Of a DNA stretch of 64,000 bases, positions 16,356 through 64,000 are shown piece by piece (position 1 is the first letter of the stretch; each line of letters starts with the position of its first letter). This stretch comes from a virus (lineage: Duplodnaviria > Heunggongvirae > Uroviricota > Caudoviricetes), in IMG/VR virus record IMGVR_UViG_3300043436_002205; one strand, written 5' to 3'. The translations under genes were made by a program, and so were the position numbers. The notes under the pieces were generated by a model. That model was not told where the DNA came from. It did not search any database and saw only the letters and a list, made by a program, of their open reading frames with translations.

Positions 16356-16391
16356 TCTAAGATAAATATCTCTACAAGATGGAGATATTTT

Positions 16392-16958
16392 ATGATAGTT
16401 GCTGGTATTGATTATAGTTTGACGAGCCCCGCTATATGCGTTCACGAGGGCGATGAATGGAACGTGAAAAACTGCCGTTTCTACTATGTCGTACATCGAG
16501 AGAAATCAGTCGTTGTCTCTGGGCAGTTCTATGGAGAGATGTATCAAGAGTATCTTTGCGACGCGCATCGATACGATAACCTCTCAAAGTGGTCACTCAA
16601 GACTCTCACATCAAACAACGTAACTAAGTGCTTCATTGAAGGATACGCCTTCAATGCTGTCGGCCGAGTCTTTCAGATAGCAGAGAACACCGGCCAACTA
16701 AAGTATCGTCTTTGGAAAGACAAGATTCCCTTTCAAGTGTTTGCGCCACCCGAGATCAAAAAGTTTGCTACCACGAAGGGAAACGCAAACAAAGAAAAGA
16801 TGTATGAAAGCTTTTTTGAAGAAACAATGGTTGACATTCGCGTAGAATTGGATATATTAAATAAGAATCAATGGAATCCGGTTTCGGACATTGTTGATTC
16901 CTACTATATCGCAAAGCTAGGCTTCATAAAGGAAAAAGAAAATGTGGATCAAGCGTAA
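16392..16958 (+). CDS. RuvC-like Holliday junction resolvase (RNase H fold), putative
   Basis: GIDYSLTSPAICV N-terminus resembles RuvC GIDPG. Internal E (IEGYAF). C-terminal DIVDSYYIA resembles RuvC DAADALAIA. Confidence 0.45.
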   Translation: MIVAGIDYSLTSPAICVHEGDEWNVKNCRFYYVVHREKSVVVSGQFYGEMYQEYLCDAHRYDNLSKWSLKTLTSNNVTKCFIEGYAFNAVGRVFQIAENTGQLKYRLWKDKIPFQVFAPPEIKKFATTKGNANKEKMYESFFEETMVDIRVELDILNKNQWNPVSDIVDSYYIAKLGFIKEKENVDQA

Positions 16959-17163
16959 GAGCATTCTGACTGGTGTTGAGCGTACTCGCAACATTCCGGT
17001 TAACCCTGACGACATGGCTGCTTGGGAAACTGGCCTAGGCAACATTCAGGAGCTGATGCCGTATCTTAACGATACCGACCGCGAGTTCATTCTTTCCGGT
17101 ATCACTGCCAAGGAGTGGGATGAAGCATTTGCAGAAGCATCGACGGAGGAGCATAGGTTTTGA
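16942..17163 (+). CDS. hypothetical protein
   Basis: 73-aa ORF overlapping its neighbours. Confidence 0.4.
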   Translation: MWIKRKSILTGVERTRNIPVNPDDMAAWETGLGNIQELMPYLNDTDREFILSGITAKEWDEAFAEASTEEHRF

Positions 17164-43668: not shown

Positions 43669-44412
43669 TCATCCAACGAAATTGTAAACGAGTGGTTGAA
43701 GTGAAGTCTTCGCGTTTTCTTCCATCTCTTTGCGGTCTGCCTTTGCTTCCGATAGGATCTGTTCACCGTTGAACTGAACACCACCGATAAGCTGCATGTT
43801 TGTGAACTTTGTTAGGTTTACACCCCACTGCTCACGTATTAGGATAGACGCATAGTTCTGAAGAAAGCGATCGCTCCATACATCGGAATATGTGTTGCCA
43901 TCAATAATGTCGTATCCTTCTATAATGATAAACGACCCAGGATTTAAGATGTTCTTATTTACATCGAGATACAAACGATTTATGTGGCGGTTATATCTTA
44001 TAAGAGGTTTACCCACGAGAATTTCCTGAAGAAATTGTAGGTGCGATAGAGCCATGTAGTAATGCTGAATGTTATAACCGGTTATGTCTTCGAGATTATT
44101 CAAAACGAACTGATACTGAACGTTGAAGAAGCCAGTTCCGGTCGAGATCGATGAACTAAGATCAAAGATACGAGTAATGCCAAGCATGCTCTCAGGTACT
44201 TCTACATATCCCTGATCTATCTCTTCTTGAGTTAGCGCGTGTTTAAGATATATCATCTGGCTACCATCGTAGTGATAGTCTCTCCAGAATGCTATTGCCT
44301 CGTCAATACGATCTTCTATCTGTTCGTCAGAAACGTTGATCTGAATGACTGGTGCACCGATCTTTCTAAGAACATAATCTTTGAATTCGCTTCTTGTTGA
44401 AGGACGTGCCAT
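43669..44412 (-). CDS. neck protein (gp13-like)
   Basis: FKDYVLRKIGAPVIQINVSDEQIEDRIDEAIAFWRDYHYDG parallels T4 gp13 [41 protein letters not shown]. Confidence 0.75.
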   Translation of the reverse strand: MARPSTRSEFKDYVLRKIGAPVIQINVSDEQIEDRIDEAIAFWRDYHYDGSQMIYLKHALTQEEIDQGYVEVPESMLGITRIFDLSSSISTGTGFFNVQYQFVLNNLEDITGYNIQHYYMALSHLQFLQEILVGKPLIRYNRHINRLYLDVNKNILNPGSFIIIEGYDIIDGNTYSDVWSDRFLQNYASILIREQWGVNLTKFTNMQLIGGVQFNGEQILSEAKADRKEMEENAKTSLQPLVYNFVG

Positions 44413-44421
44413 GTTTGATCA

Positions 44422-44478
44422 CCTTACTTTTTGATCTATTTATAAAAAGTAAGGCGATCTATTCGACAGCCTTACTTT
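44422..44478 (-). promoter_or_regulatory. late promoter TATAAATA (44437-44444) embedded in mutually exclusive hairpins
   Basis: Arm2 AAAAAGTAAGGC can pair with arm1 CCTTACTTTTT or with arm3 GCCTTACTTT. The two loops share AATAGATC. It lies between the giant gene's stop and the gp13 start. Confidence 0.45.
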
Positions 44479-44506
44479 ATCAAAATGCAATAGATCCACT
44501 TTGTAA

Positions 44507-49663: not shown

Positions 49664-49700
49664 TTATTGCTTCCTAGCTTAATGATAAGATTGTTTCTTC

Positions 49701-49708
49701 TATTTATA
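49701..49708 (-). promoter_or_regulatory. T4-type late promoter TATAAATA in a small hairpin loop upstream of the giant gene
   Basis: Exact motif flanked by TCTTCT/AGAAGA. Confidence 0.4.
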
Positions 49709-49795
49709 AAAGAAGACGAACCGCATTTTTCTATTGACATATGTGAAATTACTGATATAATTAGATTTAATATCTATCAGGCCGGTAGTATATAC

Positions 49796-50542
49796 TCACT
49801 CGATGCGTTCGATATCTTCTTCATAGCAGTTCTCTCCATACTGGATCTCAACAATCTTGAGTTCTTCAGACGAGTCGTTAATGAGTTGATGCCAGTCGGT
49901 TACGACAATGGTGACGAAGTCACCTTTCTTCAAAGGTTTTCTTATTCCATTGTGTAGGATTGCACCTGTACCATTCGTCACGTACCAAAGTTCGCTTCGA
50001 TACTTATGTCTCTGAAGACTCAGTGACTTACCTGGTTCGACGACGAGCTCCTTTACCTTCGTAGAAGGACCGTCTGAGTGAAGAACACGATAGTATCCCC
50101 ACTTTCTTTCAGTCTTTGGAGTCTTCCACTCAGTGAGGATCTTGCTACTCGAATTCATCTTATGAGTTCCACCGACGCCAAATACAAATGATAGTCTTTC
50201 ATCCTTAATACTCATTTCCGGAATATTAATATTCGTTCTATCCCCGCCATTTGCAAAGATGATTTCATCATTAGGAAACTTTCCTAGGCACAACTTAATT
50301 GCTTCTGATGCCCCGCCATCACTATCGTCAAAGATCATGACACTATCGACCATATGAAGGCTCTCAACGATTGCAACTCTTTCTGATAGACTCATGAATG
50401 GCTGGCCCTTTTTACGAGTTAACCATTCGTCACTATTGACTCCAACTATTAGAATATCGCCGAGCTCTTTTGCTTCGTTAAAATATGCGATGTGACCGCT
50501 GTGAATTGGATCAAAACCGCCGGTTACAAGTACTATCTTCAT
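49796..50542 (-). CDS. bifunctional sugar-phosphate nucleotidyltransferase (HldE domain-II-like) with a C-terminal cupin (mannose-6-phosphate isomerase type-II-like)
   Basis: N-terminus VLVTGGFDPIHSGHIAYFNEAKELGDILIVGVNSDEW matches heptose-1-phosphate adenylyltransferase (NGCFDILHAGH...GDRLIVAVNSD). The C-terminus (ELWYVTNGTG...VEIQYGENCYEEDIERIE) matches the cupin of mannose-1-P guanylyltransferase/isomerases. Confidence 0.65.
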   Translation of the reverse strand: MKIVLVTGGFDPIHSGHIAYFNEAKELGDILIVGVNSDEWLTRKKGQPFMSLSERVAIVESLHMVDSVMIFDDSDGGASEAIKLCLGKFPNDEIIFANGGDRTNINIPEMSIKDERLSFVFGVGGTHKMNSSSKILTEWKTPKTERKWGYYRVLHSDGPSTKVKELVVEPGKSLSLQRHKYRSELWYVTNGTGAILHNGIRKPLKKGDFVTIVVTDWHQLINDSSEELKIVEIQYGENCYEEDIERIE

Positions 50543-50545
50543 TTC

Positions 50546-52117
50546 TTACTCCGCATCAAAAAAGAACATTTGCCATAGACGTGAATTTTCTAAAGCATAT
50601 CCAAAGTATTCAGACGCTGCGTGTATCAACCCAGCATCAAATATAACTAGTCTATTATAAACGTTTCCAACCACATCAACTGGCTCGTATGGAGTTCTAT
50701 CCAGAGTAGTATGACCAGAGAATGTGCTCATAATTTCTGGATGCGAGTTATGACGTATACGTGTTGCTTTATGTGCAAACATAGATGTACCTGTCTGATA
50801 TGGCGCGTCTGGTGTTAGAAACAACATTCCTGCATACTTCTGTTCGTCGCAGTGATACACGAGAGGTTCGCCTGCGTAGCAGTACTGGAATCTACCGTTC
50901 ATTCCATACTGTTCCCACTTAGTAACCTTCATTCCCATGATCTTTTCGAACTCGTCTTTTAATCCGTTAAAGAGGTACTGTTTGTGAGTTCTTCTTCCAA
51001 TGTATCCTCTTCCTATGCCACCCTCGTCAAATTCTCTAGTCATAGCATACTTCCTTACTTCATCCGGATTTTGATAAAAGTCATCTACGACCCACAGTCT
51101 CTTCTTATAAGGATTTATAATCGAAGAGGGGTTTAATACTGATTTTTCGAATACATCCAAGTCTTTGTAATCAAAGTTTGGTAAGAAAAAGTTTTTAAGA
51201 TGCTCTCTTTCAAGTATCATTTTTGGCAACTCGCTTATTGGATACTTTTTCAAAACATGATCATTATTTCCAGAAGGTGGAACAGAACCTTCAGTAAGAG
51301 GAGTTTTGTTGAGAAAATCAATAAACGAGTCATCGCTAAATTTGATAGAACTGTTATCTTCTTTACGCATCCATTCAAACGAATCGTTGTAATGGGCAAA
51401 GACTTTTGCTTTTAAAACTCTATTTTCAACTCCGCCCATCCATGACAAGTGCCATCCAAGATCTTTAACGGGTTGTCCATTTTCTGTTATATAATGAACA
51501 GGAAATGGGTTACCGATATTTGATCTTATATTCGAAGGATTTATTTTTTTTAGTTGACTCTTCGTAGCAAGAAACATTCCGCCAGACCAATCTACTGGAT
51601 ACCCATTACTATAACAAACACGAAGGTCTGCTCTTCCTTCTAAGTATATCAACGGAACTTTAATAATAATATTTTGATTTTGCTTGCATACGTTAGAAAG
51701 ATATTGAATAACTTCAGGCTTTATAATTTCGTCAGCGTCACTATGTATGAACACGGTATCATCATCAAACTTATCTAGCGCAATTAAAAGAGCATCTTTC
51801 TGTAGGCGCTCTCTTACCTTTGCTCTCTTTGATTCAATTTCGTTACGACTATCGTTTTTCATATCCGCGGTGTCGATAGGAAGAATCACTAGATCTTCGT
51901 CTTCTGGAATATCGTGCTCTATATATACGATCTTATCTTCTGGTAAATTTAGTTTTTTTGCAATCTCACTAAATTTTCTCTCGACGTTCTGTCCGCTATG
52001 TGTTTTATTCGACTCTGCAATCACAAAATAGTCTACATAATCTTTAAGAAGATTTACTCTCAGCTCTAGTGTTTGCTCGCCATACGGAGCAAAAAATGGA
52101 AAAAAATCTACTATCAT
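50546..52117 (-). CDS. GT17-like glycosyltransferase (GnT-III family N-domain) with a C-terminal domain carrying an HxD...H motif (possible Fe/2OG oxygenase-like)
   Basis: N-terminus IVDFFPFFAPYGEQTLELRVNLLKDYVDYFVIAESNKTHSG matches bacterial GT17 (IYDCFTFFNELDLLELRLN...VDYFVIVES..TF.G). DADE acidic motif. C-terminal YHCDEQ...FAH. Confidence 0.5.
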   Translation of the reverse strand: MIVDFFPFFAPYGEQTLELRVNLLKDYVDYFVIAESNKTHSGQNVERKFSEIAKKLNLPEDKIVYIEHDIPEDEDLVILPIDTADMKNDSRNEIESKRAKVRERLQKDALLIALDKFDDDTVFIHSDADEIIKPEVIQYLSNVCKQNQNIIIKVPLIYLEGRADLRVCYSNGYPVDWSGGMFLATKSQLKKINPSNIRSNIGNPFPVHYITENGQPVKDLGWHLSWMGGVENRVLKAKVFAHYNDSFEWMRKEDNSSIKFSDDSFIDFLNKTPLTEGSVPPSGNNDHVLKKYPISELPKMILEREHLKNFFLPNFDYKDLDVFEKSVLNPSSIINPYKKRLWVVDDFYQNPDEVRKYAMTREFDEGGIGRGYIGRRTHKQYLFNGLKDEFEKIMGMKVTKWEQYGMNGRFQYCYAGEPLVYHCDEQKYAGMLFLTPDAPYQTGTSMFAHKATRIRHNSHPEIMSTFSGHTTLDRTPYEPVDVVGNVYNRLVIFDAGLIHAASEYFGYALENSRLWQMFFFDAE

Positions 52118-52118
52118 A

Positions 52119-53135
52119 TTATAACCTTTCTAAAACAGTTAAACCGTTGTTGTTTGTTAAGAATTTTTTGAATCTCCAGTGAGGGTTAACCATGAGAAAC
52201 TCTATTATAGCTGGAAGAAGACCTTGAGAAGTACTGTATGCTTGGCCTCCCTCGTTCTTTAGACCAAAAGTATTTGTATCGTGGAACACCATGTATTTTC
52301 TAGACTTATTTCCATGAAGTGAAAGCTCTTGTTTTAACTGCTCGTATGTATGCCAAGTATCAATGAAGAGCAGGTCTGTTTCTTCGATATCAATCTTAAG
52401 AACGTCTGCTTCGATGAATGTAGCATCCTTTCCAGCTTTCTTTGCCTCGTTGATTAGATCTACTACTTTTTGATCTGTTACGATGTCATATGAAATTAGT
52501 CTCGCATCAACTCTTAAGAATGCTCGTGTACTTATTCCGGTTCTTACACCCATCTCTATTATATGATTACAATCTTTAGCTAGTTCATATAGAACTGGAA
52601 GGTGTTCGTGAATGTCACTAGGAGACGAAGCCGCGATCGCGAACTCTTTCTCTATCATGTGTTTGAAATTTTTTTGCGGCTGGTCTTCCGAATGTCTAAT
52701 AGTACCAACCGAAGGAATATACTTTTTCATTATGTCGTTCAAATTTACCATATCATATATCTCACTCTTAGTGTTCTTTTCTTTTGCTTTAAGAAAGAAC
52801 GGATGTATGTTCATAAAATCATCTTCTTTTCCAATATATTTATATATTAGCAGTAACATATAAAACGCATCTATTCTTGACGAGTCAACGTTCAATGCAT
52901 TCTTTAAAATTTTCTCTGCCATCGCAAAACTATCGCCATGTTCTATCAATGACTTTGCAGCTGACACTAGAGAATTATAGATAAGTTCTACGTCATCTGT
53001 CCTATCTGCCGCTCTTAGAAAGTATCCACAGGCAGAAGAATACTGCTGAAGGATTTCATACTCTTTTCCAAGATCGTAGTTGTACTGAGCGTTTCCTGGA
53101 TCACTTATATAAGTGTTAATCTTTTCTTTAAGCAT
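52119..53135 (-). CDS. SAM-dependent methyltransferase (Methyltransf_24-like) with an N-terminal TPR-like module shared with the next gene
   Basis: C-terminal IIEMGVRTGIST, LLFIDTWHTYE, YMVFHDT. N-terminal ISDPGNAQYNYDLGKEYEILQQYSSACGYFLRAADRTDD is homologous to NPSDPEVSFTLGSYYEDLGQYSSAGSYYLRTAERTEN in the 53137..54753 protein. Confidence 0.55.
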   Translation of the reverse strand: MLKEKINTYISDPGNAQYNYDLGKEYEILQQYSSACGYFLRAADRTDDVELIYNSLVSAAKSLIEHGDSFAMAEKILKNALNVDSSRIDAFYMLLLIYKYIGKEDDFMNIHPFFLKAKEKNTKSEIYDMVNLNDIMKKYIPSVGTIRHSEDQPQKNFKHMIEKEFAIAASSPSDIHEHLPVLYELAKDCNHIIEMGVRTGISTRAFLRVDARLISYDIVTDQKVVDLINEAKKAGKDATFIEADVLKIDIEETDLLFIDTWHTYEQLKQELSLHGNKSRKYMVFHDTNTFGLKNEGGQAYSTSQGLLPAIIEFLMVNPHWRFKKFLTNNNGLTVLERL

Positions 53136-53136
53136 G

Positions 53137-54753
53137 TTACCCTCTCAAAATAAAATCATCAAACACGTCTCTAGGTATTCTTAGTATGTAAGAAGCATTA
53201 TCTTCATAGCCATAGGATATAAGTACGTCATTCTTATGGTAAGCAATACCAGATACAAACTCAATAGTACCACCCATCATAGTAAAGTCACGAGTAGAGC
53301 ATACGATGTTCCAGTTTCTATCCCAGACTACGATTCGCTGAAAGTATCTTCTTCCGCTATCCTTGCCGCTATATAAGCACTCGTGAGTAACACCTATGTA
53401 GTAATCGTCATTCCAAGGAAGAATATGAGAACCGCCTCTTAAGTCTCGAGGAAACCGATAAGTCTTAGACTCTTCCAAGTGAACGGTCTCGGTCTTTAGA
53501 GTTTTAGTATCAAATGAAACTATCTGAGTTGGGTTAGACCACTTCACCCATTGGAACGGTTTATCTAGAACAGGCATCCAGTTCTTTTCACAATAGGTAT
53601 CGTCGTTTCCTGGCGCAGGAATTGAAAAACGTTCTACTTCGACTACGCCATTCTCGGTTATCTCGATCTGTGAAAGATCCATACGACCCTTACCTTCTAG
53701 TATGTGGTCCCTTCTTACTCCACATAGATACTTCTTTCCATCCCACTCTACAAACCTAGCATCTTCCAATCCAATGTAGAACCAGTTAGGATTCTCATTG
53801 AGTCTCATGTCAACGCGATCTGCAGTTATAACATTAAGTCGATCGTCTAATCTGCACACGACGTTTTCGGATCTGATATTAATGTCGTTGTCGGAATATA
53901 GATATTTGAGAGGACCGTCTTTTTCTGGAAACTTATTACTGTAGTAGAGTGTGTAGTTTGTTTCTCTTAAGTTTACAAAGACTCTCTCTTTATCATCAAC
54001 AAACACGGAAGCATTTGTAGTCGCAACTCCTTTAGAAACAGAATGAGGAACTACGATAGAATGCACGGATCCTCCCTTTTCCAAAACATATTTGGAAAGA
54101 CTAGAACTATATACATCCTTTAAATCTGAAGAGTTGTGATAGTAGTTAGCTCTTTCGTTTTCTTTTTTGATCTGCATAAGATTCTTTAACGCATCTCTTT
54201 TTATGTGGTTCGGAACGTCCTTGATCTTTGTTAACGATAGTAATATCTCTCTTGCTTCTTCAATGAAACCGCTGTTAAAACCAGCATGCGCTTTTTGCAA
54301 AAGAAGTGAATACTTTCCTTCAAAAATAGTTTTAAATCTCAAGGGTTTTAAATTATCTATGTCTTTAATAGATAATGCGGTGCACACTAGAGAGTACGCG
54401 GTGAACCACTTCTCATCGTTCGTTTCGTTATTTTCTATGAACTTACTTAGAATTAAATATGCTTCGGGTCTATCAGGCATATGCGATATCGCAAAGTTTA
54501 GCATACCCTTTGTTGAATATCTACGTCTTCCTAGTGAAGCAGTACATGCTGCAAACCTTATTAGGCTCTCATATGACAGAAGACGGTTCTCTGTTCTTTC
54601 TGCTGTTCTTAAGTAATAAGAACCAGCCGAAGAATACTGCCCCAGATCCTCATAGTAAGATCCTAGAGTAAAACTTACTTCTGGATCACTAGGGTTAAGA
54701 GCAAACATCGTGATCAATTGTTTCATTTCTTCAAGCATATTAACCCTTTGCAT
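53137..54753 (-). CDS. unknown enzyme-like protein (paralogue A: TPR-like N-module plus conserved beta-rich core)
   Basis: Core shares CEKNWMPVLD and RIVVWDRNWNIV...FTMMGG with the downstream paralogue. The extra N-terminal about 190 aa is shared with the methyltransferase. Confidence 0.45.
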   Translation of the reverse strand: MQRVNMLEEMKQLITMFALNPSDPEVSFTLGSYYEDLGQYSSAGSYYLRTAERTENRLLSYESLIRFAACTASLGRRRYSTKGMLNFAISHMPDRPEAYLILSKFIENNETNDEKWFTAYSLVCTALSIKDIDNLKPLRFKTIFEGKYSLLLQKAHAGFNSGFIEEAREILLSLTKIKDVPNHIKRDALKNLMQIKKENERANYYHNSSDLKDVYSSSLSKYVLEKGGSVHSIVVPHSVSKGVATTNASVFVDDKERVFVNLRETNYTLYYSNKFPEKDGPLKYLYSDNDINIRSENVVCRLDDRLNVITADRVDMRLNENPNWFYIGLEDARFVEWDGKKYLCGVRRDHILEGKGRMDLSQIEITENGVVEVERFSIPAPGNDDTYCEKNWMPVLDKPFQWVKWSNPTQIVSFDTKTLKTETVHLEESKTYRFPRDLRGGSHILPWNDDYYIGVTHECLYSGKDSGRRYFQRIVVWDRNWNIVCSTRDFTMMGGTIEFVSGIAYHKNDVLISYGYEDNASYILRIPRDVFDDFILRG

Positions 54754-55804
54754 AATTTAAAAACTTTTCTACGGTTGCATATGGAGTTTCTAATACGTAT
54801 GCAACGTTGTCTTGAAAACCAAACGTGATGAGGATCTTTCCTTTATGGTGACACATTCCGCACGTAAACTCAGTATGTCCTCCCATAATGGTAAAGTCAT
54901 CAGAGAAACCTACTATGTCCCAGTTCCTATCCCATACTATAAAGCGATGCCGATATACTCCGTCCTTTACTCGCTTCTCTCCTTTAAACAGATCCACCTC
55001 GTGAGTAAGAGCAATATAGTGATCACCGAACGGAATGACTTGCGATCCTCCACGAGGTTCTGTAAGACCCTTAGGATTTCCATTAAACAGACGCTTCTCG
55101 CTAAGAAAGGCTGTTTCTGCTTTAGATTTTTCTATATCTACAAGAACTACTTCTGTTGGGTTGCACCACTTTATGTACGTATAGTTTTGATCTAGAACTG
55201 GCATCCAATTCTTTTCGCAATAAGACTTGTCTTCACCAGGTGCACCGATACGAGTTCTTGACACTTCTATGACTTCGTTTTCCAGAACTTCTATCTCTGA
55301 CAGTTCCATACGACCCTGTCCGTTTGTAGTCGTATCTCTACGAACTCCAGTCATATAGAGCTTTCCGCCCCATTCCACGAGTCTTGCGTCTTCAAGTCCT
55401 ACGAAGTCCCAGATTGGTTCTTTGTCCAATCTTGAAGTATCTACGTGATTGAATCTAGTAATGTTATAGTTATCATCAAGTTCGCAGTAGTAGTTTTCAG
55501 TGCGAAGCTTCATATCGTCTTCGGGGTGAAGATATGTTAGAGGCCCCCAAGGATGGACGAATTTCTTTTTCTCTGAATGATAGAATAGATAGTTGGTGCA
55601 TCTTACATTAACAATCAATTTATCATTATGAACCAAGATGGATGGGTTCATGAGACCAGTTCCACCGGTGAGTTCGACTGGAACGATAAGCGGATGAATG
55701 CTGCCGCCGTCCGTTAATGCTTGTTGTGCTAGAGTGATAGAAGTTTCATATCTGTATGTTTGCTCTACTTGATATGAATCTTTTATGTGTTCAAAAAATG
55801 ACAT
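54740..55804 (-). CDS. unknown enzyme-like protein (paralogue B of the 53137..54753 core)
   Basis: CEKNWMPVLD and RFIVWDRNWDIV...FTIMGG conserved with paralogue A. First gene of the apparent operon. Confidence 0.45.
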   Translation of the reverse strand: MSFFEHIKDSYQVEQTYRYETSITLAQQALTDGGSIHPLIVPVELTGGTGLMNPSILVHNDKLIVNVRCTNYLFYHSEKKKFVHPWGPLTYLHPEDDMKLRTENYYCELDDNYNITRFNHVDTSRLDKEPIWDFVGLEDARLVEWGGKLYMTGVRRDTTTNGQGRMELSEIEVLENEVIEVSRTRIGAPGEDKSYCEKNWMPVLDQNYTYIKWCNPTEVVLVDIEKSKAETAFLSEKRLFNGNPKGLTEPRGGSQVIPFGDHYIALTHEVDLFKGEKRVKDGVYRHRFIVWDRNWDIVGFSDDFTIMGGHTEFTCGMCHHKGKILITFGFQDNVAYVLETPYATVEKFLNYAKG

Positions 55805-55876
55805 AGTGTAATAAGTCTCCGCATAATATAGTTATCTCAACTACATTTATTTATCTGCCACGATAGCGTTGATTAT

Positions 55877-56146
55877 TTAACCCAATGCGATTGCGTATGC
55901 AACTGCGTCTGCCGTCGTTACAGGTGTATCCCAAAAGACACTGTTTGCAGAAGAGTGTAATACTTGTCCAAAAGATCCAGGTGAATTTGTGCTGTCATAT
56001 ATGGCTCCAGTTATTCTAACATTGCCTTCCACGTGCAGTTTTTGAGATGGGATTAACGTCCCAATGCCTATATTTCCTGCGCCATCAGCGGTTATTCCGC
56101 CAATACTAACATTAACTCCTACTAACGTCCTTAACGATACTGGCAT
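55877..56146 (-). CDS. small fibre-associated protein (Gly-rich beta-repeat)
   Basis: Start overlaps the stop of the collagen-like fibre gene (TAATG). Sequence GNIGIGTLIPSQKLHVEGNVRITG is fibre-like. Confidence 0.35.
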   Translation of the reverse strand: MPVSLRTLVGVNVSIGGITADGAGNIGIGTLIPSQKLHVEGNVRITGAIYDSTNSPGSFGQVLHSSANSVFWDTPVTTADAVAYAIALG

Positions 56147-59100
56147 TAGTTATCTCTCTTTATGTTTTCGATATCGGCTTTTAGTCTCTTAACTGCTTCT
56201 ATTAAGATCGCAATAAGTGGAGTATATGCAACCGTCTTCCAACCGTTTCCGTTTGTTTTCACGAGTTCTGGCATTATCTTTTCAAGTTCCTGCGCAATCA
56301 CACCGTAACTCTTAGTTTTGTTATCTTTCCAATCGAAACTATATGTATTTATTCTTTCTAGAATATCAAAGCTGTTATCAATAGACATAAAGTTTTCTTT
56401 AAACGTTTCGTCTGAAAGCGAGTTGAAGTTAGTCGCCGAGAGATCACCGGTCGAAGGATTGAAATACAGTTTAGTTGTAGAAACTTCTGCCGTTTGATTC
56501 GATCCAGCCGCTGCTACGAATACTGGGTAATGAGTCGCATTAGTGGTGGTATCGTCAGACGCGTTAATCGTAGTAGACGGTCCTGATGTACCTTGGATAC
56601 CTTGAACACCCTGTGAACCTGTTCCGCCAATACCTTGAGAGCCAACCCCTTGAATACCTTGAATGCCTTGAGTACCCTGAGTACCCTGAGTACCCTGAAG
56701 ACCTTGTGTACCCCGAGTACCCTGAAGACCCTGTGTCCCTTGAGTTCCCTGAAGACCTTGAGTACCCTGAGTACCCTGAAGACCTTGTGTACCCTGAGTA
56801 CCCTGAAGACCCTGCGTTCCTTGAGTTCCTTGAGTTCCCTGAAGACCTTGAGATCCAGTCGTACCTTGGGTTCCTTGAGTACCTTGAATACCTTGAATAC
56901 CTTGGAAACCTTGAGTTCCAGTTGTACCTTGTGTTCCCTGAGTTCCTTGAATACCTTGGAAACCTTGTCTACCTTGTAGGCCTTGAGATCCAGTCGTACC
57001 TTGGGTTCCTTGAGTACCTTGAATACCTTGAATACCTTGGAGACCTTGGGATCCAGTTGTACCCTGAGTTCCTTGGGTACCTTGAATACCTTGGAAACCT
57101 TGTCTACCTTGTAGGCCTTGAGTACCCTGCGTGCCCTGAGTCCCTTGTGTACCTTGTGTTCCCTGAGTTCCTTGAATACCTTGGAAACCTTGAGTTCCAG
57201 TTGTACCTTGAATACCTTGAATACCCTGCGGGCCATATGCATACAATGCAGCTGTAAAATATGTGCCGTTTGCACTGCTATTAATGTTCTGAGAAGTTGT
57301 ATTTCCAGTAAATGCAGTAACTTCGACATAATCTGTTGTACCGTTAAAATATGCAATAGTGGAAAATGTCATTGCATAACCAGAACCAGTCATGATTTGA
57401 TCTTGACTAATTGCTAGCTGCGTAGTTCCATTTTTTCTAAGTTGGATATTGTTTTGATTATTAGTTACTGCGCCAGCATCCCACCAAACCTGAGCAGTAA
57501 TATTGTAATAACCGGCAACAGTTGGTTGGAACCTATTTGAAGCGAACCAATTCTGTGGATCAAAATCATCTGAAAATGTAACAACTGTATCGGCGCCGTT
57601 GGTGACAGTTTGTGCTATGTCTTTAACTGCACGAACTACATAACTACCGGGTGTAAGCAAACCGCCATCAAATCCTTGTACACCCTGTCTACCCTGTAGA
57701 CCTTGAGTTCCCTGAGGACCCTGTAGACCTTGAGTTCCCTGAGTACCCTGTAGACCTTGAGTACCTTGAGTTCCCTGCGTTCCTTGTGTTCCTTGAAGAC
57801 CTTGAGTACCTTGAGTTCCCTGAAGACCTTGAGTGCCTTGAGTTCCCTGCGTTCCTTGTGTTCCTTGAAGACCTTGAGTGCCTTGAGTTCCCTGAAGACC
57901 TTGAGTGCCTTGAGTTCCCTGAAGACCTTGAGTACCTTGTCTACCTTGGAGTCCTTGAGGACCCTGTACACCTTGAGTGCCTTGAGTTCCCTGAAGACCT
58001 TGAGTACCTTGTCTACCTTGGAGTCCTTGAGGACCCTGTACACCTTGAATACCTTGAACACCAATTGCAGTAAATATTTCCCAAGTAGAGCCATCATAAG
58101 CAAATTCTACAGAGAAACCTTTCACATCCATTGCAACGTCGTCTGAAACTCCTTCGATTGTGCTTCCGTTTCTTCCAACCGTAAGGTTGGTGGCCGCCCA
58201 GTCGGCTGGATCTGCAATAATTACAAAATCGCCTGTAGAAGGAGCAGCCGGAAGATTAATTGTGAATGTTCCCCCAGAAGTGTCTGCTAGAATTCTGTCT
58301 CCGGAAACTGCGGTGTATGTAGTTGTTTTTACTAACCAATTATTAAAACCACCATCCAGACCTTGTAATCCTTGAACACCAGTTCCTTGAAGACCCTGTG
58401 TCCCTTGAGTGCCCTGAGTTCCTTGAAGACCCTGTGTCCCTTGAGTGCCCTGAGTTCCTTGAAGACCTTGGGTTCCTTGAGTACCCTGAGTACCCTGAAG
58501 ACCTTGGGTTCCTTGTGTTCCTTGAGTACCCTGAGTACCCTGAAGACCTTGGGTTCCTTGTGTTCCTTGAGTTCCTTGAGTACCCTGAAGCCCTTGGGTT
58601 CCCTGAGTTCCTTGCGTACCTTGAGTTCCCTGAGTTCCTTGCGTACCTTGTGTGCCCTGAAGACCTTGAGTGCCCTGAGTTCCTTGTATACCTTGAGTTC
58701 CTTGAGTTCCTTGAGTACCCTGAAGACCCTGTGTTCCCTGAGTTCCCTGAGTTCCTTGAGTACCTTGAGTTCCTTGAGTACCTTGAGTTCCTTGAGTACC
58801 CTGAAGACCCTGCTCGCCTTGAAGACCTTGAGTGCCTTGTGTACCCTGAGTACCCTGAGTACCTTGAGTACCCTGAAGACCCTGAGTACCTTGAGTACCT
58901 TGAGTACCTTGAGTACCCTGAAGACCCTGTGTTCCCTGAGTTCCCTGAGTACCCTGAAGACCCTGTGTTCCCTGAAGACCCTGTGTTCCCTGAGTACCTT
59001 GAGTACCCTGAGTACCTTGAGTACCCTGAAGACCCTGTGTTCCCTGAAGACCCTGTGTTCCCTGAGTACCTTGAGTACCCTGAGTACCTTGAGTACCCTG

Positions 59101-62100
59101 AAGACCCTGAGTACCCTGAAGACCCTGAGTACCCTGCGGGCCTTGTAGGTTTGTTGGAGATCCAACCCATTCACCGCTCGAATTAATTACTGGCCCAACA
59201 CTTTGGATAGTGACTCCGCTTACTACGATGTTAGCGGTGTTGTCTATAGAGAATTCTACACCATTAAGTTCTAATCCAGCCCCTGCTTTATAAATCTGAG
59301 AAGAACTTATCTGAGAGAAGTTTATACCCGTGCTTCCAAAAACGATAGTGCCTTCAGTCGTCATCACGTAAAGTTGACCAGCCCCAGTGTCACCTTCAAG
59401 AACATAGAATGCGTCACCTTTTCCTAGGTTACCAGGACTGCTTGGACTATAAGAATCCGCATCCGTTGAACGAATAAGAACCCAAGCAGTGTTCGCAGAT
59501 CCAGTGTCTGAAACTGTATATACGCCGTTATGTGCAGTATTTGCTTGTTGATATAATAAGACACGATCATCAATATCTAAAGTAATGCCATCTATGATAA
59601 GAGTTGCTTGTGTTCCGACATTCGTAAGAGTTGCACCTACACCAGAAGTACCATTATCATATGCAGCATTAAGATTTATCGGTGATTCAACTCTGACTGG
59701 ATCGTGATAGTGTATAGCTGCAGATACAAGAGTATCTACATACTGTTTTGTGACAGCTTGTAGATTTCCCGTTGGATCTTGAGCGAGAGTTAAGAAACCG
59801 CTAGTCATTGCGGTACTAACGTCCGATCTTAGGAATTGTAGACTGTCTAATCCATCGAGAGTAGCAGCATCACCTGCGGTAGAACCTTGAATACCTTGCA
59901 AGCCTTGATCACCTTGAAGCCCTTGCATGCCCTGTGGGCCTTGTGTTCCTTGGATACCTTGCTCGCCCTGAACACCCTGAAGTCCTTGTGAACCCTGGGT
60001 TCCCTGCGTACCTTGTGTTCCTTGAAGACCTTGCTCACCTTGTACCCCTTGAGTTCCCTGTGTTCCTTGAGTTCCTTGCGTACCTTGGATACCTTGCTCG
60101 CCCTGAACACCCTGAAGTCCTTGTGAACCCTGGGTTCCCTGCGTACCTTGTGTTCCTTGTGTTCCTTGTAGACCTTGTGTCCCCTGTGTACCTTGTGTTC
60201 CTTGAAGACCCTGGGTCCCTTGTGTTCCTTGAAGACCCTGAGTTCCTTGTAGAACAAACAGTTCCCATTCAGCAGTATTAACCGCAGGGTCCTGGTAAAC
60301 CGATGTGATGACTTGCTTTGATACATAAGTGTTACCATCAACTGGGCTTACAGCAACAGTATCTTTTACATAGCTAGCTTCTGTCCATAATCCAATGTAA
60401 TTTAATACGAGCTCTATGCCTTGGAGTCCCTGTAGACCCTGTGTTCCTTGCTCACCCTGAAGACCTTGAGTACCTTGGGTTCCTTGTTCACCTTGAAGAC
60501 CCTGAGTACCTTGGGTTCCTTGTTCACCTTGAAGACCTTGCGTTCCTTGAGTACCCTGTGTCCCTTGAGTTCCTTGAGTTCCCTGAAGACCCTGCTCGCC
60601 TTGAAGACCTTGAGTGCCTTGGGTTCCTTGAGTTCCCTGAAGACCTTGGGTTCCTTGTGTACCCTGTGTCCCTTGAGTTCCTTGAGTTCCTTGAGTTCCC
60701 TGAAGACCCTGCTCGCCTTGAAGACCTTGAGTGCCTTGTGTACCCTGTGTCCCTTGAGTTCCTTGAGTTCCCTGAAGACCCTGCTCGCCTTGAAGACCTT
60801 GAGTGCCTTGGGTTCCTTGAAGACCTTGAGTGCCTTGGGTTCCTTGAGTACCTTGGGTTCCCTGAAGACCCTGCTCGCCTTGAAGACCTTGAGTGCCTTG
60901 GGTTCCTTGAAGACCTTGAGTGCCTTGGGTTCCTTGAGTACCTTGGGTTCCTTGTTCACCTTGAAGACCTTGCGTTCCTTGAGTACCCTGAAGACCTTGC
61001 GTTCCTTGCGTACCCTGAAGACCTTGCGTTCCTTGCGTACCCTGAAGACCCTGTGTCCCTTGAGTTCCCTGAATACCTTGAGTTCCTTGTGTACCCGTAC
61101 CCTGCGTCCCTTGAAGACCCTGCATGCCCTGGGCGCCTTCATCCCCATCTACTGCTGCAGTACCTTGTGTACCCTGAGAACCCTGAAGACCTTGTAAGCC
61201 CTGTGGGCTCTGTGTACCTTGAGTTCCCTGCTCTCCTTGTAGACCCTGAAGACCTTGAGTACCTTGTGTTCCTTGAGTACCCTGAAGACCTTGTTCGCCT
61301 TGGAGACCTTGGGTTCCCTGAGTTCCCTGAGTTCCTTGTGTACCCTGCGTCCCTTGAGTTCCTTGCTCGCCTTGAAGACCTTGGGTGCCTTGGGTTCCCT
61401 GAGTTCCTTGCGTCCCTTGAGTTCCTTGGGTGCCTTGGGTGCCTTGCGTCCCTTGAGTTCCTTGCTCGCCTTGAAGACCTTGGGTGCCTTGCGTCCCTTG
61501 CGTCCCTTGAGTTCCCTGAAGACCTTGCGTTCCCTGCGTCCCTTGTTCGCCTTGAAGACCTTGCGTTCCCTGAGTTCCCTGAGTTCCTTGCGTTCCTTGA
61601 GTACCTTGGGTTCCCTGAAGACCCTGTGTCCCTTGAGTTCCCTGAATACCTTGAGTTCCTTGCGTACCCTGAACACCCTGAAGACCAGTGTCACCGATGT
61701 CACCTGTACGAGCAAACGTGATGATAACATCTTCATTATTATTGAATGAAGAAACAGAACCGGATACATAAGATCCGTCCACTGTGAAGTAACCAGTTTC
61801 TTCTGTTATTGAAGATATCGTGAATAACACGAAACGAGAAGAATTAGTGCGGTTTGATACTCTAAAGTGACCCTTAATAGTAGATGTAGAGTCGTCTATC
61901 GTTCTTAAGAAACTTTGTATGTCTGTACTGTTATCATCCGCGTCATCGATGTACATACTAAGAGCGGTAGTGATATCGGTGTTGCTAAATTTAAGTTTTC
62001 CAACTCCAGGATCGGTTGCATCTACAGAATTGCTAAAGGTGTAATCAAATGAAGCGCCGCCAAAGTTTCCGTCAATACCCTGAGTACCCTGTGAACCCTG

Positions 62101-62424
62101 AGTACCTTGAGAACCCTGTGCACCTTGAATACCTTGAAAACCTAGAGAACCCTGCAGACCTTGAGTTCCTTGAGAACCCTGTGTTCCTTGAAAACCCTGT
62201 AGACCTTGACGCCCTTGGAGACCTTGTGTACCTTGGATCCCTTGAACTACGCTAGTATCAAGCCAAAAACGATTACCCTCTTCGTCTGAAGCAAGCACAT
62301 AGTTATTTCCGGCTGGAACTCCAAGATCTGGTTCCGCATCAGAAAGTTTCAGATACCTGTATCTATCTGGAGACGCTTGAGTCGATGGCGTCTTTTTTAC
62401 TTTACCTGATAAAAATTCTGTCAT
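56146..62424 (-). CDS. giant collagen-like (Gly-X-Y) tail fibre protein with a C-terminal intramolecular-chaperone (peptidase S74) auto-processing domain
   Basis: 2092-aa ORF. At least six long G-T/L/E-Q-G triplet blocks are separated by globular segments. The C-terminus ...YSFDWKDNKTKSYGVIAQELEKIMPELV... matches the S74 chaperone domain of phage fibres/endosialidases. Confidence 0.8.
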   Translation of the reverse strand: MTEFLSGKVKKTPSTQASPDRYRYLKLSDAEPDLGVPAGNNYVLASDEEGNRFWLDTSVVQGIQGTQGLQGRQGLQGFQGTQGSQGTQGLQGSLGFQGIQGAQGSQGTQGSQGTQGIDGNFGGASFDYTFSNSVDATDPGVGKLKFSNTDITTALSMYIDDADDNSTDIQSFLRTIDDSTSTIKGHFRVSNRTNSSRFVLFTISSITEETGYFTVDGSYVSGSVSSFNNNEDVIITFARTGDIGDTGLQGVQGTQGTQGIQGTQGTQGLQGTQGTQGTQGTQGTQGTQGLQGEQGTQGTQGLQGTQGTQGTQGTQGLQGEQGTQGTQGTQGTQGTQGTQGTQGTQGTQGLQGEQGTQGTQGTQGTQGTQGTQGLQGEQGLQGTQGTQGTQGLQGLQGEQGTQGTQSPQGLQGLQGSQGTQGTAAVDGDEGAQGMQGLQGTQGTGTQGTQGIQGTQGTQGLQGTQGTQGLQGTQGTQGLQGTQGTQGLQGEQGTQGTQGTQGTQGLQGTQGTQGLQGEQGLQGTQGTQGTQGTQGLQGTQGTQGLQGEQGLQGTQGTQGTQGTQGTQGLQGEQGLQGTQGTQGTQGTQGTQGTQGLQGTQGTQGTQGLQGEQGLQGTQGTQGTQGTQGTQGLQGEQGTQGTQGLQGEQGTQGTQGLQGEQGTQGLQGLQGIELVLNYIGLWTEASYVKDTVAVSPVDGNTYVSKQVITSVYQDPAVNTAEWELFVLQGTQGLQGTQGTQGLQGTQGTQGTQGLQGTQGTQGTQGTQGSQGLQGVQGEQGIQGTQGTQGTQGTQGVQGEQGLQGTQGTQGTQGSQGLQGVQGEQGIQGTQGPQGMQGLQGDQGLQGIQGSTAGDAATLDGLDSLQFLRSDVSTAMTSGFLTLAQDPTGNLQAVTKQYVDTLVSAAIHYHDPVRVESPINLNAAYDNGTSGVGATLTNVGTQATLIIDGITLDIDDRVLLYQQANTAHNGVYTVSDTGSANTAWVLIRSTDADSYSPSSPGNLGKGDAFYVLEGDTGAGQLYVMTTEGTIVFGSTGINFSQISSSQIYKAGAGLELNGVEFSIDNTANIVVSGVTIQSVGPVINSSGEWVGSPTNLQGPQGTQGLQGTQGLQGTQGTQGTQGTQGTQGLQGTQGLQGTQGTQGTQGTQGTQGLQGTQGLQGTQGTQGTQGLQGTQGTQGTQGTQGLQGTQGTQGTQGTQGTQGLQGEQGLQGTQGTQGTQGTQGTQGTQGTQGTQGLQGTQGTQGTQGIQGTQGTQGLQGTQGTQGTQGTQGTQGTQGTQGLQGTQGTQGTQGTQGLQGTQGTQGTQGTQGLQGTQGTQGTQGLQGTQGTQGTQGLQGTQGTQGTQGLQGTGVQGLQGLDGGFNNWLVKTTTYTAVSGDRILADTSGGTFTINLPAAPSTGDFVIIADPADWAATNLTVGRNGSTIEGVSDDVAMDVKGFSVEFAYDGSTWEIFTAIGVQGIQGVQGPQGLQGRQGTQGLQGTQGTQGVQGPQGLQGRQGTQGLQGTQGTQGLQGTQGTQGLQGTQGTQGTQGTQGLQGTQGTQGLQGTQGTQGTQGTQGLQGTQGTQGLQGPQGTQGLQGRQGVQGFDGGLLTPGSYVVRAVKDIAQTVTNGADTVVTFSDDFDPQNWFASNRFQPTVAGYYNITAQVWWDAGAVTNNQNNIQLRKNGTTQLAISQDQIMTGSGYAMTFSTIAYFNGTTDYVEVTAFTGNTTSQNINSSANGTYFTAALYAYGPQGIQGIQGTTGTQGFQGIQGTQGTQGTQGTQGTQGTQGLQGRQGFQGIQGTQGTQGTTGSQGLQGIQGIQGTQGTQGTTGSQGLQGRQGFQGIQGTQGTQGTTGTQGFQGIQGIQGTQGTQGTTGSQGLQGTQGTQGTQGLQGTQGTQGLQGTQGTQGLQGTQGTQGLQGTRGTQGLQGTQGTQGTQGIQGIQGVGSQGIGGTGSQGVQGIQGTSGPSTTINASDDTTTNATHYPVFVAAAGSNQTAEVSTTKLYFNPSTGDLSATNFNSLSDETFKENFMSIDNSFDILERINTYSFDWKDNKTKSYGVIAQELEKIMPELVKTNGNGWKTVAYTPLIAILIEAVKRLKADIENIKRDN
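56581..62250. repeat. intragenic 9-bp-periodic nucleotide repeats encoding the Gly-X-Y blocks
   Basis: Highly repetitive ctgagtaccctgaagacc-type units. Blocks lie at roughly 56581-57240, 57661-58060, 58350-59150, 59880-60250, 60420-61700 and 62070-62250. They generate long spurious ORFs in other frames. Confidence 0.8.
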
Positions 62425-62429
62425 CTATC

Positions 62430-62897
62430 TTACACCACACCACTGTGTTCGCTCGACAGTCTTTCTTCGGCTGCCGACCAAACATCAAATATTCCATTTA
62501 TTTCGCTTCTAACTTGTAACGTATCTCCAGTTGCATTGTTAGCAACTCTTTTAAACAAACTTCTACCTTGAATAGGAATAAAAGCAGTATCACCAGCAGG
62601 AACCTCAAGTTTTCCAAGCTCTATCGTATCATTATCTTCGGTTACAAGGATGATTTCTATCCATCTATCGTTCGATGTGTCTTTATTTTTTGCAGCTAGC
62701 GGCGTAAGAAAAAAGATCTCTCCTGGTCTTATAGCACGAGCCTCGTCCGTAGGATCCCTTTCGGCAAACTTAATAGATGCGTCTGGAACAGAAAAGTCTG
62801 GAGCTTCTGCAATTACTTCAAACGTGTTTGACACACTTTCTTTTGCTATTCTTAATGGCTTACCCGTTGACGGTGTTCTGCATGTAATACGTGCCAT
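62430..62897 (-). CDS. hypothetical virion/assembly protein
   Basis: 155-aa ORF in the late operon, 5 nt upstream of the fibre gene. Confidence 0.45.
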   Translation of the reverse strand: MARITCRTPSTGKPLRIAKESVSNTFEVIAEAPDFSVPDASIKFAERDPTDEARAIRPGEIFFLTPLAAKNKDTSNDRWIEIILVTEDNDTIELGKLEVPAGDTAFIPIQGRSLFKRVANNATGDTLQVRSEINGIFDVWSAAEERLSSEHSGVV

Positions 62898-62899
62898 GA

Positions 62900-63949
62900 T
62901 TAAAAACTCCTTGCGATTGCAGCTCTAGTAGCAATTCTATTAACTGATTGTTCAAACGGAGGACCAGTAAGTTCTCCAGTATCGGCATCGATCTTCATAC
63001 CGCCAATGAAGAGCGCCGAACCCTGATCATCCTGGCCAGATGCAATAACCACTCCGTTGTTTAATTCGAGTATACTTTCTTCGATCGTCGAAAAATTTCT
63101 TGCTGGTGGTATTTTAGTAAGAGCGACTCCGGCCATAAGAGCGGTCCAAGTATGACTGATGGCAGTGATCGTAGACGGTTCCGTAACTGTTTCTGTATTT
63201 TGAATTGTATTCAATAATGCAGTGATTAGATTTGTAACTATCGTGTCAGACGCAGAGTTGACATTAGGAAGCGCAATAATAGTGTCTCTTATAAATTGAA
63301 ACATATATATAAGAGCGGCTTCTCTCGAAGGATCGTAGACTTTTTCCGATATAGTGTTAAATAAGCCCTTAGCAAAATCTAGCATCGGCTTTTCGTTCGC
63401 CGTTTGTAAAACCCATATTATGGACTGTATTAGAGTCGTAGCTTCTCTTCTAAAATATATTTCATCTTGAGAGTTCCAACCGGTTGTGTAATCTTCTGCA
63501 ACAAGATCGTCCCATGCGTCTTCTACGATAGAAGCCTTTATGGAGTTTACTGCAGTCGACGCCGTTGTTTGAACGGAAAGAGAACCCTCGGCTACTTCTG
63601 TTGGAACCACAATCTGCCTAGATCCATCTGCGACCATAGTAAAGTCGCCAAATTGCGTTGAACACGAAGACAGAATGATTTGACCGCCGTCAAGAGCAAG
63701 AAAGTGTTTATGAGACCACATACTAATCGCATTTACGGCGTTAATAAGACCACCGTTCTTTGCGACGTATCCAATACCATTGTGCGAAACAGGAGTTGCA
63801 CCCCACGCCATGATGTTTGGATATATGCTATATTTAGAACAGACGGCGCCGTCTGCGAGTATAACTCCAGCGCCACGACCAATAAGAGGGTTCTGATTCT
63901 CTCTATCGAGAGGAGGCGCAACCGTGTCCCAGAACGGAGTAGTTCTCAC
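62900..63949 (-). CDS. hypothetical structural protein
   Basis: 349-aa ORF in the late operon. No motif recognised. Confidence 0.45.
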   Translation of the reverse strand: MRTTPFWDTVAPPLDRENQNPLIGRGAGVILADGAVCSKYSIYPNIMAWGATPVSHNGIGYVAKNGGLINAVNAISMWSHKHFLALDGGQIILSSCSTQFGDFTMVADGSRQIVVPTEVAEGSLSVQTTASTAVNSIKASIVEDAWDDLVAEDYTTGWNSQDEIYFRREATTLIQSIIWVLQTANEKPMLDFAKGLFNTISEKVYDPSREAALIYMFQFIRDTIIALPNVNSASDTIVTNLITALLNTIQNTETVTEPSTITAISHTWTALMAGVALTKIPPARNFSTIEESILELNNGVVIASGQDDQGSALFIGGMKIDADTGELTGPPFEQSVNRIATRAAIARSF

Positions 63950-64000
63950 AACAACCTTATGAATATAAGGAGCTCTTCTTATTACCGCGTCTTGTCTAAA

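Follow-up and report, generated by a model that had tools for sequence, protein, structure and literature searches.

The fibre gene and its product

The DNA stretch analyzed here, hereafter the window, comprises 64,000 nucleotides (nt) of the IMG/VR virus record IMGVR_UViG_3300043436_002205. On its minus strand, an open reading frame (ORF) scan located a gene at 56146..62424 that starts with ATG, ends with a stop codon at 56146-56148 and encodes a protein of 2092 amino acids (aa). This is the ORF that an earlier, model-made interpretation of the DNA letters (the sequence-only reading) had singled out as a tail fibre. From the N to the C terminus, the protein comprises an anchor, six collagen-like blocks of Gly-X-Y triplets that alternate with globular modules (D1 to D5) and an S74 chaperone domain. 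It appears largely right to describe the product as a collagen-like, S74-ended virion fibre of an uncultured T4-like myovirus, and as an exceptionally long, multi-tract member of an already known class. The identical 2092-aa protein is present on nine contigs of other assemblies, five of which exceed 200 kb. Together with a longest exact repeat of 95 nt, these nine exact contigs speak against gross misassembly of the repeat region, which had been raised as a concern.

The Peptidase_S74 intramolecular chaperone domain occupies aa 2004-2092 (56149..56415, minus strand), with Ser2004 as the nucleophile and Lys2009 as the base. Pfam Peptidase_S74 (PF13884) matched aa 2004-2056 with an E value of 9.6e-15 (55.1 bits, cutoff 22), and the E value was 2.9e-17 when the C-terminal segment was searched alone. 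The stretch S2004-D-E-T-F-K2009 aligned to SDRRIK of 6f45, the solved chaperone domain of a long tail fibre (E=3.6e-5), and sequence matches to 8jov and 8hqz were also obtained. S2004, D2005 and K2009 were invariant in all 48 distinct related C-termini. The sequence-only reading had proposed an S74 domain of roughly 110 aa and had considered that the Ser-Lys dyad might be missing on alignment. The domain is present with its dyad, and its length was overestimated, since the domain proper measures about 89 aa. A domain of this family reportedly can be expected to nucleate the trimer and then to cleave itself. By analogy, the fibre would be trimeric and would be cleaved at Ser2004. The distal segment ahead of this site, aa 1951-2003 (56416..56574, minus strand), to which PHROG tail-fibre profiles align from about aa 1960 on, would then become the tip of the mature fibre once the chaperone is released.

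A direct count yielded 405 Gly-X-Y triplets, equal to 1215 aa or 58% of the protein. GTQ is the most frequent type (219 triplets, 54%), followed by GLQ (82, 20%), GIQ (21), GEQ (17) and GPQ (6). Pfam Collagen (PF01391) matched in 18 stretches with an E value of 3.9e-177 and 574.7 bits, above its gathering threshold of 27.2, so that both profile searches suggested beforehand returned scores over their thresholds. At least six tracts alternating with globular domains had been anticipated; we found six blocks, separated by noncollagenous segments of 55 to 245 aa. Tract 1 (aa 62-124; 62053..62241, minus strand, as for all following features of the gene) consists of 21 triplets and has the same length in all alleles seen. 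Tract 2 (aa 241-671; 60412..61704) is composed of 55, 5, 6 and 75 triplets with three breaks of 2 to 3 residues, and its distal part, aa 447-671, varies. Tract 3 (aa 727-849; 59878..60246) has 41 triplets and is variable in length. The longest unbroken run, 85 triplets, forms tract 4 (aa 1095-1349; 58378..59142), which is both the most repetitive, with a lag-9 identity of 0.73, and the most variable. Tract 5 (aa 1455-1589; 57658..58062) has 45 triplets, and tract 6 (aa 1731-1950; 56575..57234) has 66 and 6 triplets with one break and is of the same length in the alleles seen. The tracts are predicted to form a trimeric triple helix; in an AlphaFold2 (AF2) model of the monomer, tract 1 reached predicted local distance difference test (pLDDT) values of 40-64.

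At the DNA level, the repeat-coding portion amounts to 3681 nt, or 59% of the gene, in six separate blocks. Nucleotide identity at a lag of 9 was 63-73%, compared to about 31% at lags 8 and 10, and Tandem Repeats Finder (TRF) reported 64-73% matches for the 9-bp arrays. The 9-bp periodicity described in the sequence-only reading is thus present, although "near-perfect" and "about 5 kb" overstated it. With 96 different 9-mers in the collagen-coding DNA and no exact direct repeat above 95 nt, the gene is only moderately repetitive. Higher-order TRF periods were sharper than the 9-bp period: 45 nt (77% matches), 72 nt (89%, tract 5) and 135 nt (85-88%; 88% in tract 3). Since these longer periods are clearer, the tracts have expanded via duplicated blocks of 5 to 15 triplets.

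Anchor and globular modules

The N-terminal anchor (aa 1-61; 62242..62424) is conserved at every orthologous locus, with 33-74% identity across 45 IMG/VR loci. Its only family assignment is to phrog_8745, "tail fiber protein," at positions 1-60 (E=1.3e-7), and it is 40-43% identical to tail-fibre genes of the cyanophages S-CAM9 and P-SSM2. PHROG tail-fibre families were matched by the anchor, by modules D3 and D4 and by the C-terminal region.

Module D1 (aa 125-240; 61705..62052) was confidently modeled as a beta-sandwich, for which structure comparison gave no convincing relative. The small module D2 (aa 672-726; 60247..60411) is 91% identical in the lineage of contig L006 and had neither a Pfam nor a PHROG match. 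D3 (aa 850-1094; 59143..59877) is a widespread phage-fibre module. It matched the tail fibre of Legionella phage LME-1 (E=1.9e-14), which is present in PDB 9efk in 18 copies, i.e., six trimers, and it is 51% identical to the tail fibre of Roseobacter phage CRP-603. It occurred in 114 of 120 database matches, mostly together with S74, and is the commonest S74 partner among the database relatives. D4 (aa 1350-1454; 58063..58377) is a beta-sandwich as found in the N-terminal regions of tailspikes and in proximal subunits of long tail fibres. It matched the tailspike entries PDB 7rfv/7rej (E=1.4e-4), the proximal long-tail-fibre subunit 9x3r (E=0.055) and phrog_972, "tail fiber protein proximal subunit" (E=2.8e-8), next to a weak match to Pfam Phage_depo_C. 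A partial match to phrog_972 was also obtained with D3 (E=2e-3).

Module D5 (aa 1590-1730; 57235..57657) is flanked by collagen tracts on both sides and corresponds to a jelly-roll head of the C1q/TNF type. A profile of the D5 family (49 members) matched C1q (5hkj, E=4.8e-9), C1QL (1e-4) and the NC1 domain of collagen X (9e-4). Pfam C1q (PF00386) was matched by nine of the 49 family members, and the D5 of the fibre itself did not match it at E<=0.01. The AF2 model of D5 comprised ten strands with a pLDDT of 93.7. Foldseek aligned it to C1QL1-3 with a probability of 1.00 and template modeling (TM) scores of 0.74-0.84 and, in addition, to the phi812 spike knob, BclA and the short-fibre binding domain (CBD) of cyanophage A-1(L). 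Judged by this model, D5 has a C1q-type fold. The module is not terminal, being followed by 72 further triplets and then the S74 domain, and it was found only in the lineage of this phage.

Length variation among alleles and lineages

Five near-identical contigs carry in-frame deletions of 36 to 279 nt relative to the 2092-aa allele. The fibre of L001 (2077 aa) differs by one 45-nt deletion in tract 4 and is otherwise unchanged. That of L002 (1903 aa) lacks 279, 135, 72, 45 and 36 nt and has one single-nucleotide polymorphism (SNP). Two partial genes carry a 90-nt deletion plus one SNP (L004) and a 72-nt deletion in tract 5 between 79-nt repeats (L056). In tract 2, the 279-nt deletion of L002 and the 90-nt deletion of L004 lie between direct repeats of 54 and 95 nt; in tract 3, the 135-nt deletion of L002 lies between 77-nt repeats; tract 4 accommodates the 45-nt deletion of L001 and the 72-, 45- and 36-nt deletions of L002. 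Seven of the eight deletions are located exactly at the longest direct repeats (51-95 nt), the spacing of which equals the deleted length, and all are multiples of 9. Deletion sizes also coincide with the TRF periods of 45, 72 and 135 nt. The globular modules are 100% identical among the alleles, each allele has at most one SNP, and variation is confined to tracts 2 (part 2b), 3, 4 and 5. We did not retain the in-frame nature of the indels as a sign of selection, because a 9-nt DNA period yields multiples of 9 by collapse or recombination alike.

More distant relatives vary as well. Within the L006 lineage, fibres of 1727 aa (seven contigs), 1739 aa (two) and 1700 aa (one) occur, with zero SNPs in 3 kb of flanking DNA. 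A second lineage has fibres of 663, 660 and 632 aa, and in a third lineage the last tract numbers 21, 30 or 48 triplets. Insertions relative to the majority allele were found in other lineages, namely, +36 nt in L007/L015 and +243 nt in L027. The length differences between diverged lineages are certainly real.

All variant contigs derive from short-read assemblies, and the closest variants could in part be collapse artefacts. If this applied throughout, the fibre would be the same collagen/S74 protein with a length fixed within the strain, the shorter alleles would be products of collapse, and only the differences between diverged lineages would be genuine. The variants of the phage's own lineage are all deletions, hence shorter than the 2092-aa allele, their flanks are identical or almost so, and nearly every junction falls in an exact repeat of 51-95 nt, a signature that would also result from assembler collapse at low k. 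Out-of-frame variants in the relatives L013 and L019 indicate that errors or defective copies do occur, and contigs break within the tracts. On the other hand, the repeats, at no more than 95 nt, fall short of the final k-mer to which contig names with "k141_" point, assembly gave the 2092-aa allele in identical form nine times, L002 and L004 each bear a private SNP, and the insertions described above exist elsewhere. Near-complete contigs of 204-218 kb from several samples (L003, L004 and L054-L056) start or end inside the variable tracts: L054 begins in tract 2, L004 ends in tract 3, and ends of 217-kb contigs fall in tract 4. They break there even though no exact repeat reaches the assemblers' final k, and the restriction of breaks to the fibre gene fits co-existing alleles within samples. 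Because of the short repeats, the private SNPs, the insertions and the confined breaks, real length polymorphism is a good deal more probable than an artefact, and a fixed length within the strain is rather unlikely. The variable fibre length put forward by the sequence-only reading was therefore met with both among near-identical contigs and at orthologous loci, with the reservation that the closest cases are short-read assemblies in which collapse is possible.

Orthologous loci were located via the 155-aa gene that lies directly upstream of the fibre gene, which gave 45 loci in IMG/VR and 39 in metagenome contigs. Wherever the gene following the 155-aa gene was readable, it starts with an anchor homologue of 33-74% identity. 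Otherwise, the orthologous fibres differ widely: they measure 223 to 2092 aa, contain 0 to 405 triplets, may have or lack S74 and combine different sets of modules. In a large protein database, modules were recombined as D3 with C, D1 with D4 and C, or N with D3 and D4 (N, anchor; C, C-terminal region). Thus, globular modules are constant within a lineage and shuffled between lineages. A collagen-free concatenated query against a set of 5.8 billion proteins retrieved only proteins sharing modules, and no close alleles. The phage's own lineage was not present in the metagenome-contig scan, where the best match was 77%.

The locus also illustrates that collagen-fibre genes cause genome assemblies to fragment and mislead gene callers. 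As the sequence-only reading had warned, the repeats are accompanied by false ORFs, of which 16, measuring 114-426 aa, overlap the fibre gene in other frames. In the public record L001/L053, gene callers overlooked the 2077-aa fibre ORF at 10469-17048 and called overlapping ORFs on both strands; one of these spurious calls is the 426-aa ORF on the strand opposite the fibre gene. Many of the database "proteins" matched by the anchor and D1 are gene-call fragments, 100-300 aa long, from contigs that reach 330 kb. By exact-sequence look-up, the fibre sequence was absent from the clustered public protein collection. Protein databases probably contain too few such fibres, or contain them in pieces.

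Genomic context

The window keeps the T4-type core structural gene order. On the strand of the fibre gene it encodes gp13-like and gp14-like connector proteins, a gp9/10-like protein, gp15, TerS and TerL, and further the tail sheath, portal, prohead protease, scaffold and major capsid protein. Contigs of 217-218 kb bear the same genes, which puts the genome at about 218 kb. The nearest GenBank phages are the Sinorhizobium phages phiM12 and phiN3, with a TerL identity of merely 59%, and a megablast search with 44000-64000 gave no DNA-level match to GenBank phages. Eight exact TATAAATA motifs, the T4 late-promoter consensus, are found between 30188 and 52844, all on the minus strand, compared to a mean of 2.85 in shuffled sequences, of which 1 in 100 reaches eight. 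Most of these sites lie just 5' of structural genes (capsid, scaffold, sheath, gp13-like and a 1718-aa protein). In contig L002, a late-promoter motif precedes the genes for 112-aa, 102-aa, 539-aa and 155-aa proteins and the fibre. No terminator-like site was detected between the fibre gene and the genes downstream, and the number of terminator-like sites did not exceed that of shuffled controls. There are no tRNAs in the window.

The fibre gene lies upstream of gp13/gp14. In the T4 map, this is where wac is located, and one may ask whether the product is a neck whisker or capsid-attached fibril that serves long-range reversible adhesion, with a role like that of T4 fibritin or head fibres. 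Besides gene position, such an assignment would accommodate the match of D3 to the "head decoration" family phrog_2647, the labeling of D3 relatives in PSS2 and Phrappuccino as head or capsid decoration, and a calculated fibre length of about 350 nm, which far exceeds a T4-type tail. However, the PHROG matches of the anchor, D4 and the S74 region are overwhelmingly to tail-fibre or baseplate families, D3 matches the structurally placed tail fibre of LME-1, and homologues of the anchor in P-SSM2 adjoin the baseplate hub in a tail-fibre cluster. We therefore regard a neck or capsid location as unlikely.

An even more different role would be that of a nonvirion moron, that is, a collagen-like adhesin encoded by the phage, or a protein exported to the host surface, that has borrowed fibre domains. 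Collagen-like proteins with C1q-like heads do occur on bacterial surfaces, e.g., BclA. Here, however, the gene is situated inside the late structural module with reading frames that overlap or abut, its N-terminal domain is conserved among phage fibre genes, and S74 is typical of phage fibres. The N-terminal sequence suggests no signal peptide, although no dedicated signal-peptide search was made. This makes a moron highly improbable.

Directly upstream of the fibre gene, the gene for the 155-aa protein (62430..62897, minus strand), a conserved syntenic partner, ends 5 nt before the fibre ATG; its product had no Pfam, PHROG or NCBIfam match. Ahead of it lies the gene for the 539-aa protein (62900-64000, minus strand), which is cut by the window edge and gave only a weak tail-fibre PHROG match. 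Both genes precede the fibre in the contigs of this phage, and homologues of both are found upstream at the IMG/VR loci examined; their products may be baseplate-fibre adaptors. On the other side, an 89-aa ORF (55877..56146, minus strand) overlaps the fibre stop codon with its ATG (TAATG). It carries a "GNIGIGTLIPSQKLHVEGN" motif and gave weak PHROG matches to tail proteins (E=3e-5). In the public collection, 121 index blocks list the exact 89-aa protein; in the loci read it stands directly after the fibre gene, and it may be a fibre-associated or assembly protein.

Two further genes in the window code for large proteins with links to the baseplate. The 1718-aa virion structural protein (44507-49663, minus strand) matched phrog_5838 (E=2e-180) and a baseplate-wedge family (E=1e-21) and had no Pfam match. 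Its gene sits between the sugar genes described below and gp13, and the L006 lineage has a segment of 44% identity downstream of its fibre gene. Between the gp14-like and gp15-like genes (40507-42909, minus strand), the window encodes a protein of 800 aa whose N-terminus resembles T4 gp9/10; T4 keeps gp9 and gp10 elsewhere. This protein could be the baseplate socket for a fibre.

Five co-oriented sugar-type genes at 49796-55804 (minus strand) follow directly downstream of the fibre gene and the 89-aa ORF. They encode two paralogues with weak GH130-like similarity (54740-55804 and 53137-54753), a methyltransferase-like protein (52119-53135), a GT17-like protein with DUF6445 (50546-52117) and a nucleotidyltransferase with a mannose-6-phosphate-isomerase-type cupin (49796-50542). 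The GH130-like label is weak for both paralogues, as its Pfam E value of 0.0044 is below the cutoff and finds no support from PDB or NCBIfam. By analogy to BclA, the products of these genes might glycosylate the Thr-rich fibre. A link of the cluster to collagen fibres as such was examined and rejected, because the cluster follows the fibre only in closer lineages. In distant lineages it is missing near collagen-bearing and collagen-free fibres alike and therefore tracks phylogeny, not collagen content.

Other enzymes lie near fibre genes of this kind. In L001/L002, at 3679-6591, beyond the window edge and upstream of the fibre operon, genes for a GT25 glycosyltransferase, a radical-SAM/SPASM protein and a 2-oxoglutarate (2OG)-Fe(II) oxygenase (prolyl-hydroxylase-like, PF13640) are present. 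The fibre gene of S-CAM9 is followed by one small gene and then two 2OG-Fe(II) oxygenases. GT25 and prolyl 4-hydroxylase (P4H)-like enzymes modify animal collagen; the tracts of the fibre are almost devoid of Pro and Lys.

A model of the fibre

We consider it probable that the gene product is a homotrimeric, segmented collagen-like virion fibre whose length changes by slippage or recombination and which most probably sits on the baseplate or tail. In such a fibre, the 61-residue N-terminus would provide the anchorage to the particle. The S74 domain would align three chains in register and nucleate folding, and the six Gly-X-Y tracts would zip to triple helices. Trimeric globular modules, the C1q-type head included, may serve as registration nodes, as hinges or as additional sites of binding. 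By means of the Ser2004/Lys2009 dyad, S74 would cut itself off at Ser2004, leaving a mature fibre of about 2004 residues. The rise of collagen is 0.286 nm per residue. At this value, the blocks would measure about 18, 123, 35, 73, 39 and 63 nm in order, and their 1227 residues, if fully helical, would span about 350 nm, with the 1903-aa allele being about 54 nm shorter. The 53-residue tip that would remain after cleavage, the C1q head and D3 are candidate receptor-binding parts, through which the fibre might influence host range. As to length, duplicated blocks of 4-15 triplets would leave exact direct repeats of 50-95 nt, between which slippage or unequal recombination would gain or lose whole triplets in frame, and fibre length would evolve much faster than the remaining genome.

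Several points weigh against this model. The tracts are poor in proline (GTQ/GLQ), so that the stability of a triple helix is an assumption. C1q-type heads usually have their N- and C-termini on one face, so that a head within the chain would imply a kink or side-knob. The tail assignment, which we hold to be the most probable one, draws on annotation and synteny, and the decoration labels among D3 relatives run counter to it. The exclusively shorter own-lineage alleles with junctions in exact repeats and the out-of-frame relatives have been mentioned above.

A bolder form of the model would be an adjustable "fishing line" that measures about 300-380 nm and exceeds the remaining virion in length. 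The tracts would be contingency loci with co-existing length alleles, which would explain why breaks occur only here. Its Thr-rich helices would be glycosylated by the apparently co-transcribed sugar cluster, as in BclA, and the C1q head would be a hinge or a second receptor-binding node. As a whole, this form seems quite unlikely to us.

Relation to known fibres and significance

The architecture is of a known kind, as collagen-like phage fibres with S74 ends have already been described. The closest counterpart to the homotrimeric fibre favored here is gp222 of the T4-like Synechococcus phage S-CAM9 (YP_009322462.1, "tail fiber protein," 1830 aa), which has the same order of anchor (40% identity), D3-like module (34%), collagen and S74 (37%, with SDRRLK). 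It differs in having one tract of 59 triplets instead of six blocks with 405 triplets, and D1, D4 and D5 (C1q) were not detected in it. Genes related to gp222 are present in S-PRM1, P-SSM2 (orf23) and P-SSM5. The product of P-SSM2 orf23 consists of the anchor and 60 triplets with no detectable S74, and its gene belongs to a tail-fibre cluster that adjoins the baseplate hub. Sullivan et al. (2005) put forward the Gly-X-Y ORFs of P-SSM2 as tail-fibre candidates (PMC1079782). In the literature, we found no population-level length series for fibre genes of the S-CAM9 type.

Collagen-like fibre candidates have also been remarked on in PhiM9 (PMC4621102). A tail fibre with Collagen and Peptidase_S74 domains in Stx2 phages has been implicated in host specificity (PMC4122784), and a further paper deals with collagen-like prophage proteins in pathogenic Escherichia coli (PMC3368898). 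The Stx2 and E. coli prophage fibres share the Pfam pair with the fibre studied here; they are, however, short, have few triplets, are of the lambdoid or podovirus type and show no detectable relation outside the two domains. The S74 chaperones in MEROPS, including those of the K1F endosialidase, the GA-1 neck appendage, the L-shaped fibre pb1 of T5 and long tail fibres of the S16 type, have the C-terminal position, the Ser-x4-Lys dyad and the helical domain in common with ours. In the cases studied they fold triple beta-helices or beta-structured shafts, whereas the S74 domain described here stands 53 residues after a collagen tract.

The long tail fibre (gp34-37), the short fibre gp12 and fibritin are the trimeric fibres of the T4-type virion, and D4 resembles a domain of the proximal subunit. 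No overall homology to T4 gp34, gp35, gp36 or gp37 was found; there were only partial matches of D4 and D3, and "distal subunit" matches arose only through the chaperone domain. T4 fibres contain no collagen and need separate chaperones, and fibritin relies on a C-terminal trimerisation nucleus. With the T4 long fibre measuring about 145 nm, the fibre modeled here would exceed it more than twofold.

D5 matches the gC1q family (C1q, C1QL and the NC1 domain of collagen X) by profile and by fold, and directly follows a collagen tract, as in C1q. The heads of C1q, collagen X and BclA end the collagen stalk, a position that D5 does not hold. With the exosporium filament protein BclA of Bacillus anthracis, the fibre shares an N-terminal anchor, a collagen-like region and a C1q/TNF-like trimeric head, the BclA head being among the fold matches of D5. 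BclA is a spore protein with one tract and a C-terminal head, whereas here the head is internal and S74 is at the end. The collagen-like region and the C-terminal domain of BclA are glycosylated, and its strain-specific triplet number sets filament length (PMC10470788). Glycosylation of the phage fibre, by likeness to BclA, is conceivable. C1q, S74 and collagen modules have been catalogued in tail fibres of extracellular contractile injection systems (eCIS) (PMC12923769).

The finding is of moderate interest for two features, namely, the internal C1q-type head and the direct evidence, from short-read assemblies, that tract length varies within and between lineages. Near-identical genomes present a natural series in which the same globular modules are combined with different tract lengths, and related lineages span 0 to 405 triplets. 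If the alleles are real, the locus would help to show how a proline-poor GTQ/GLQ collagen folds from an S74 nucleus, and it would allow the effect of fibre length on adsorption and host range to be tested apart from that of the tip sequence.

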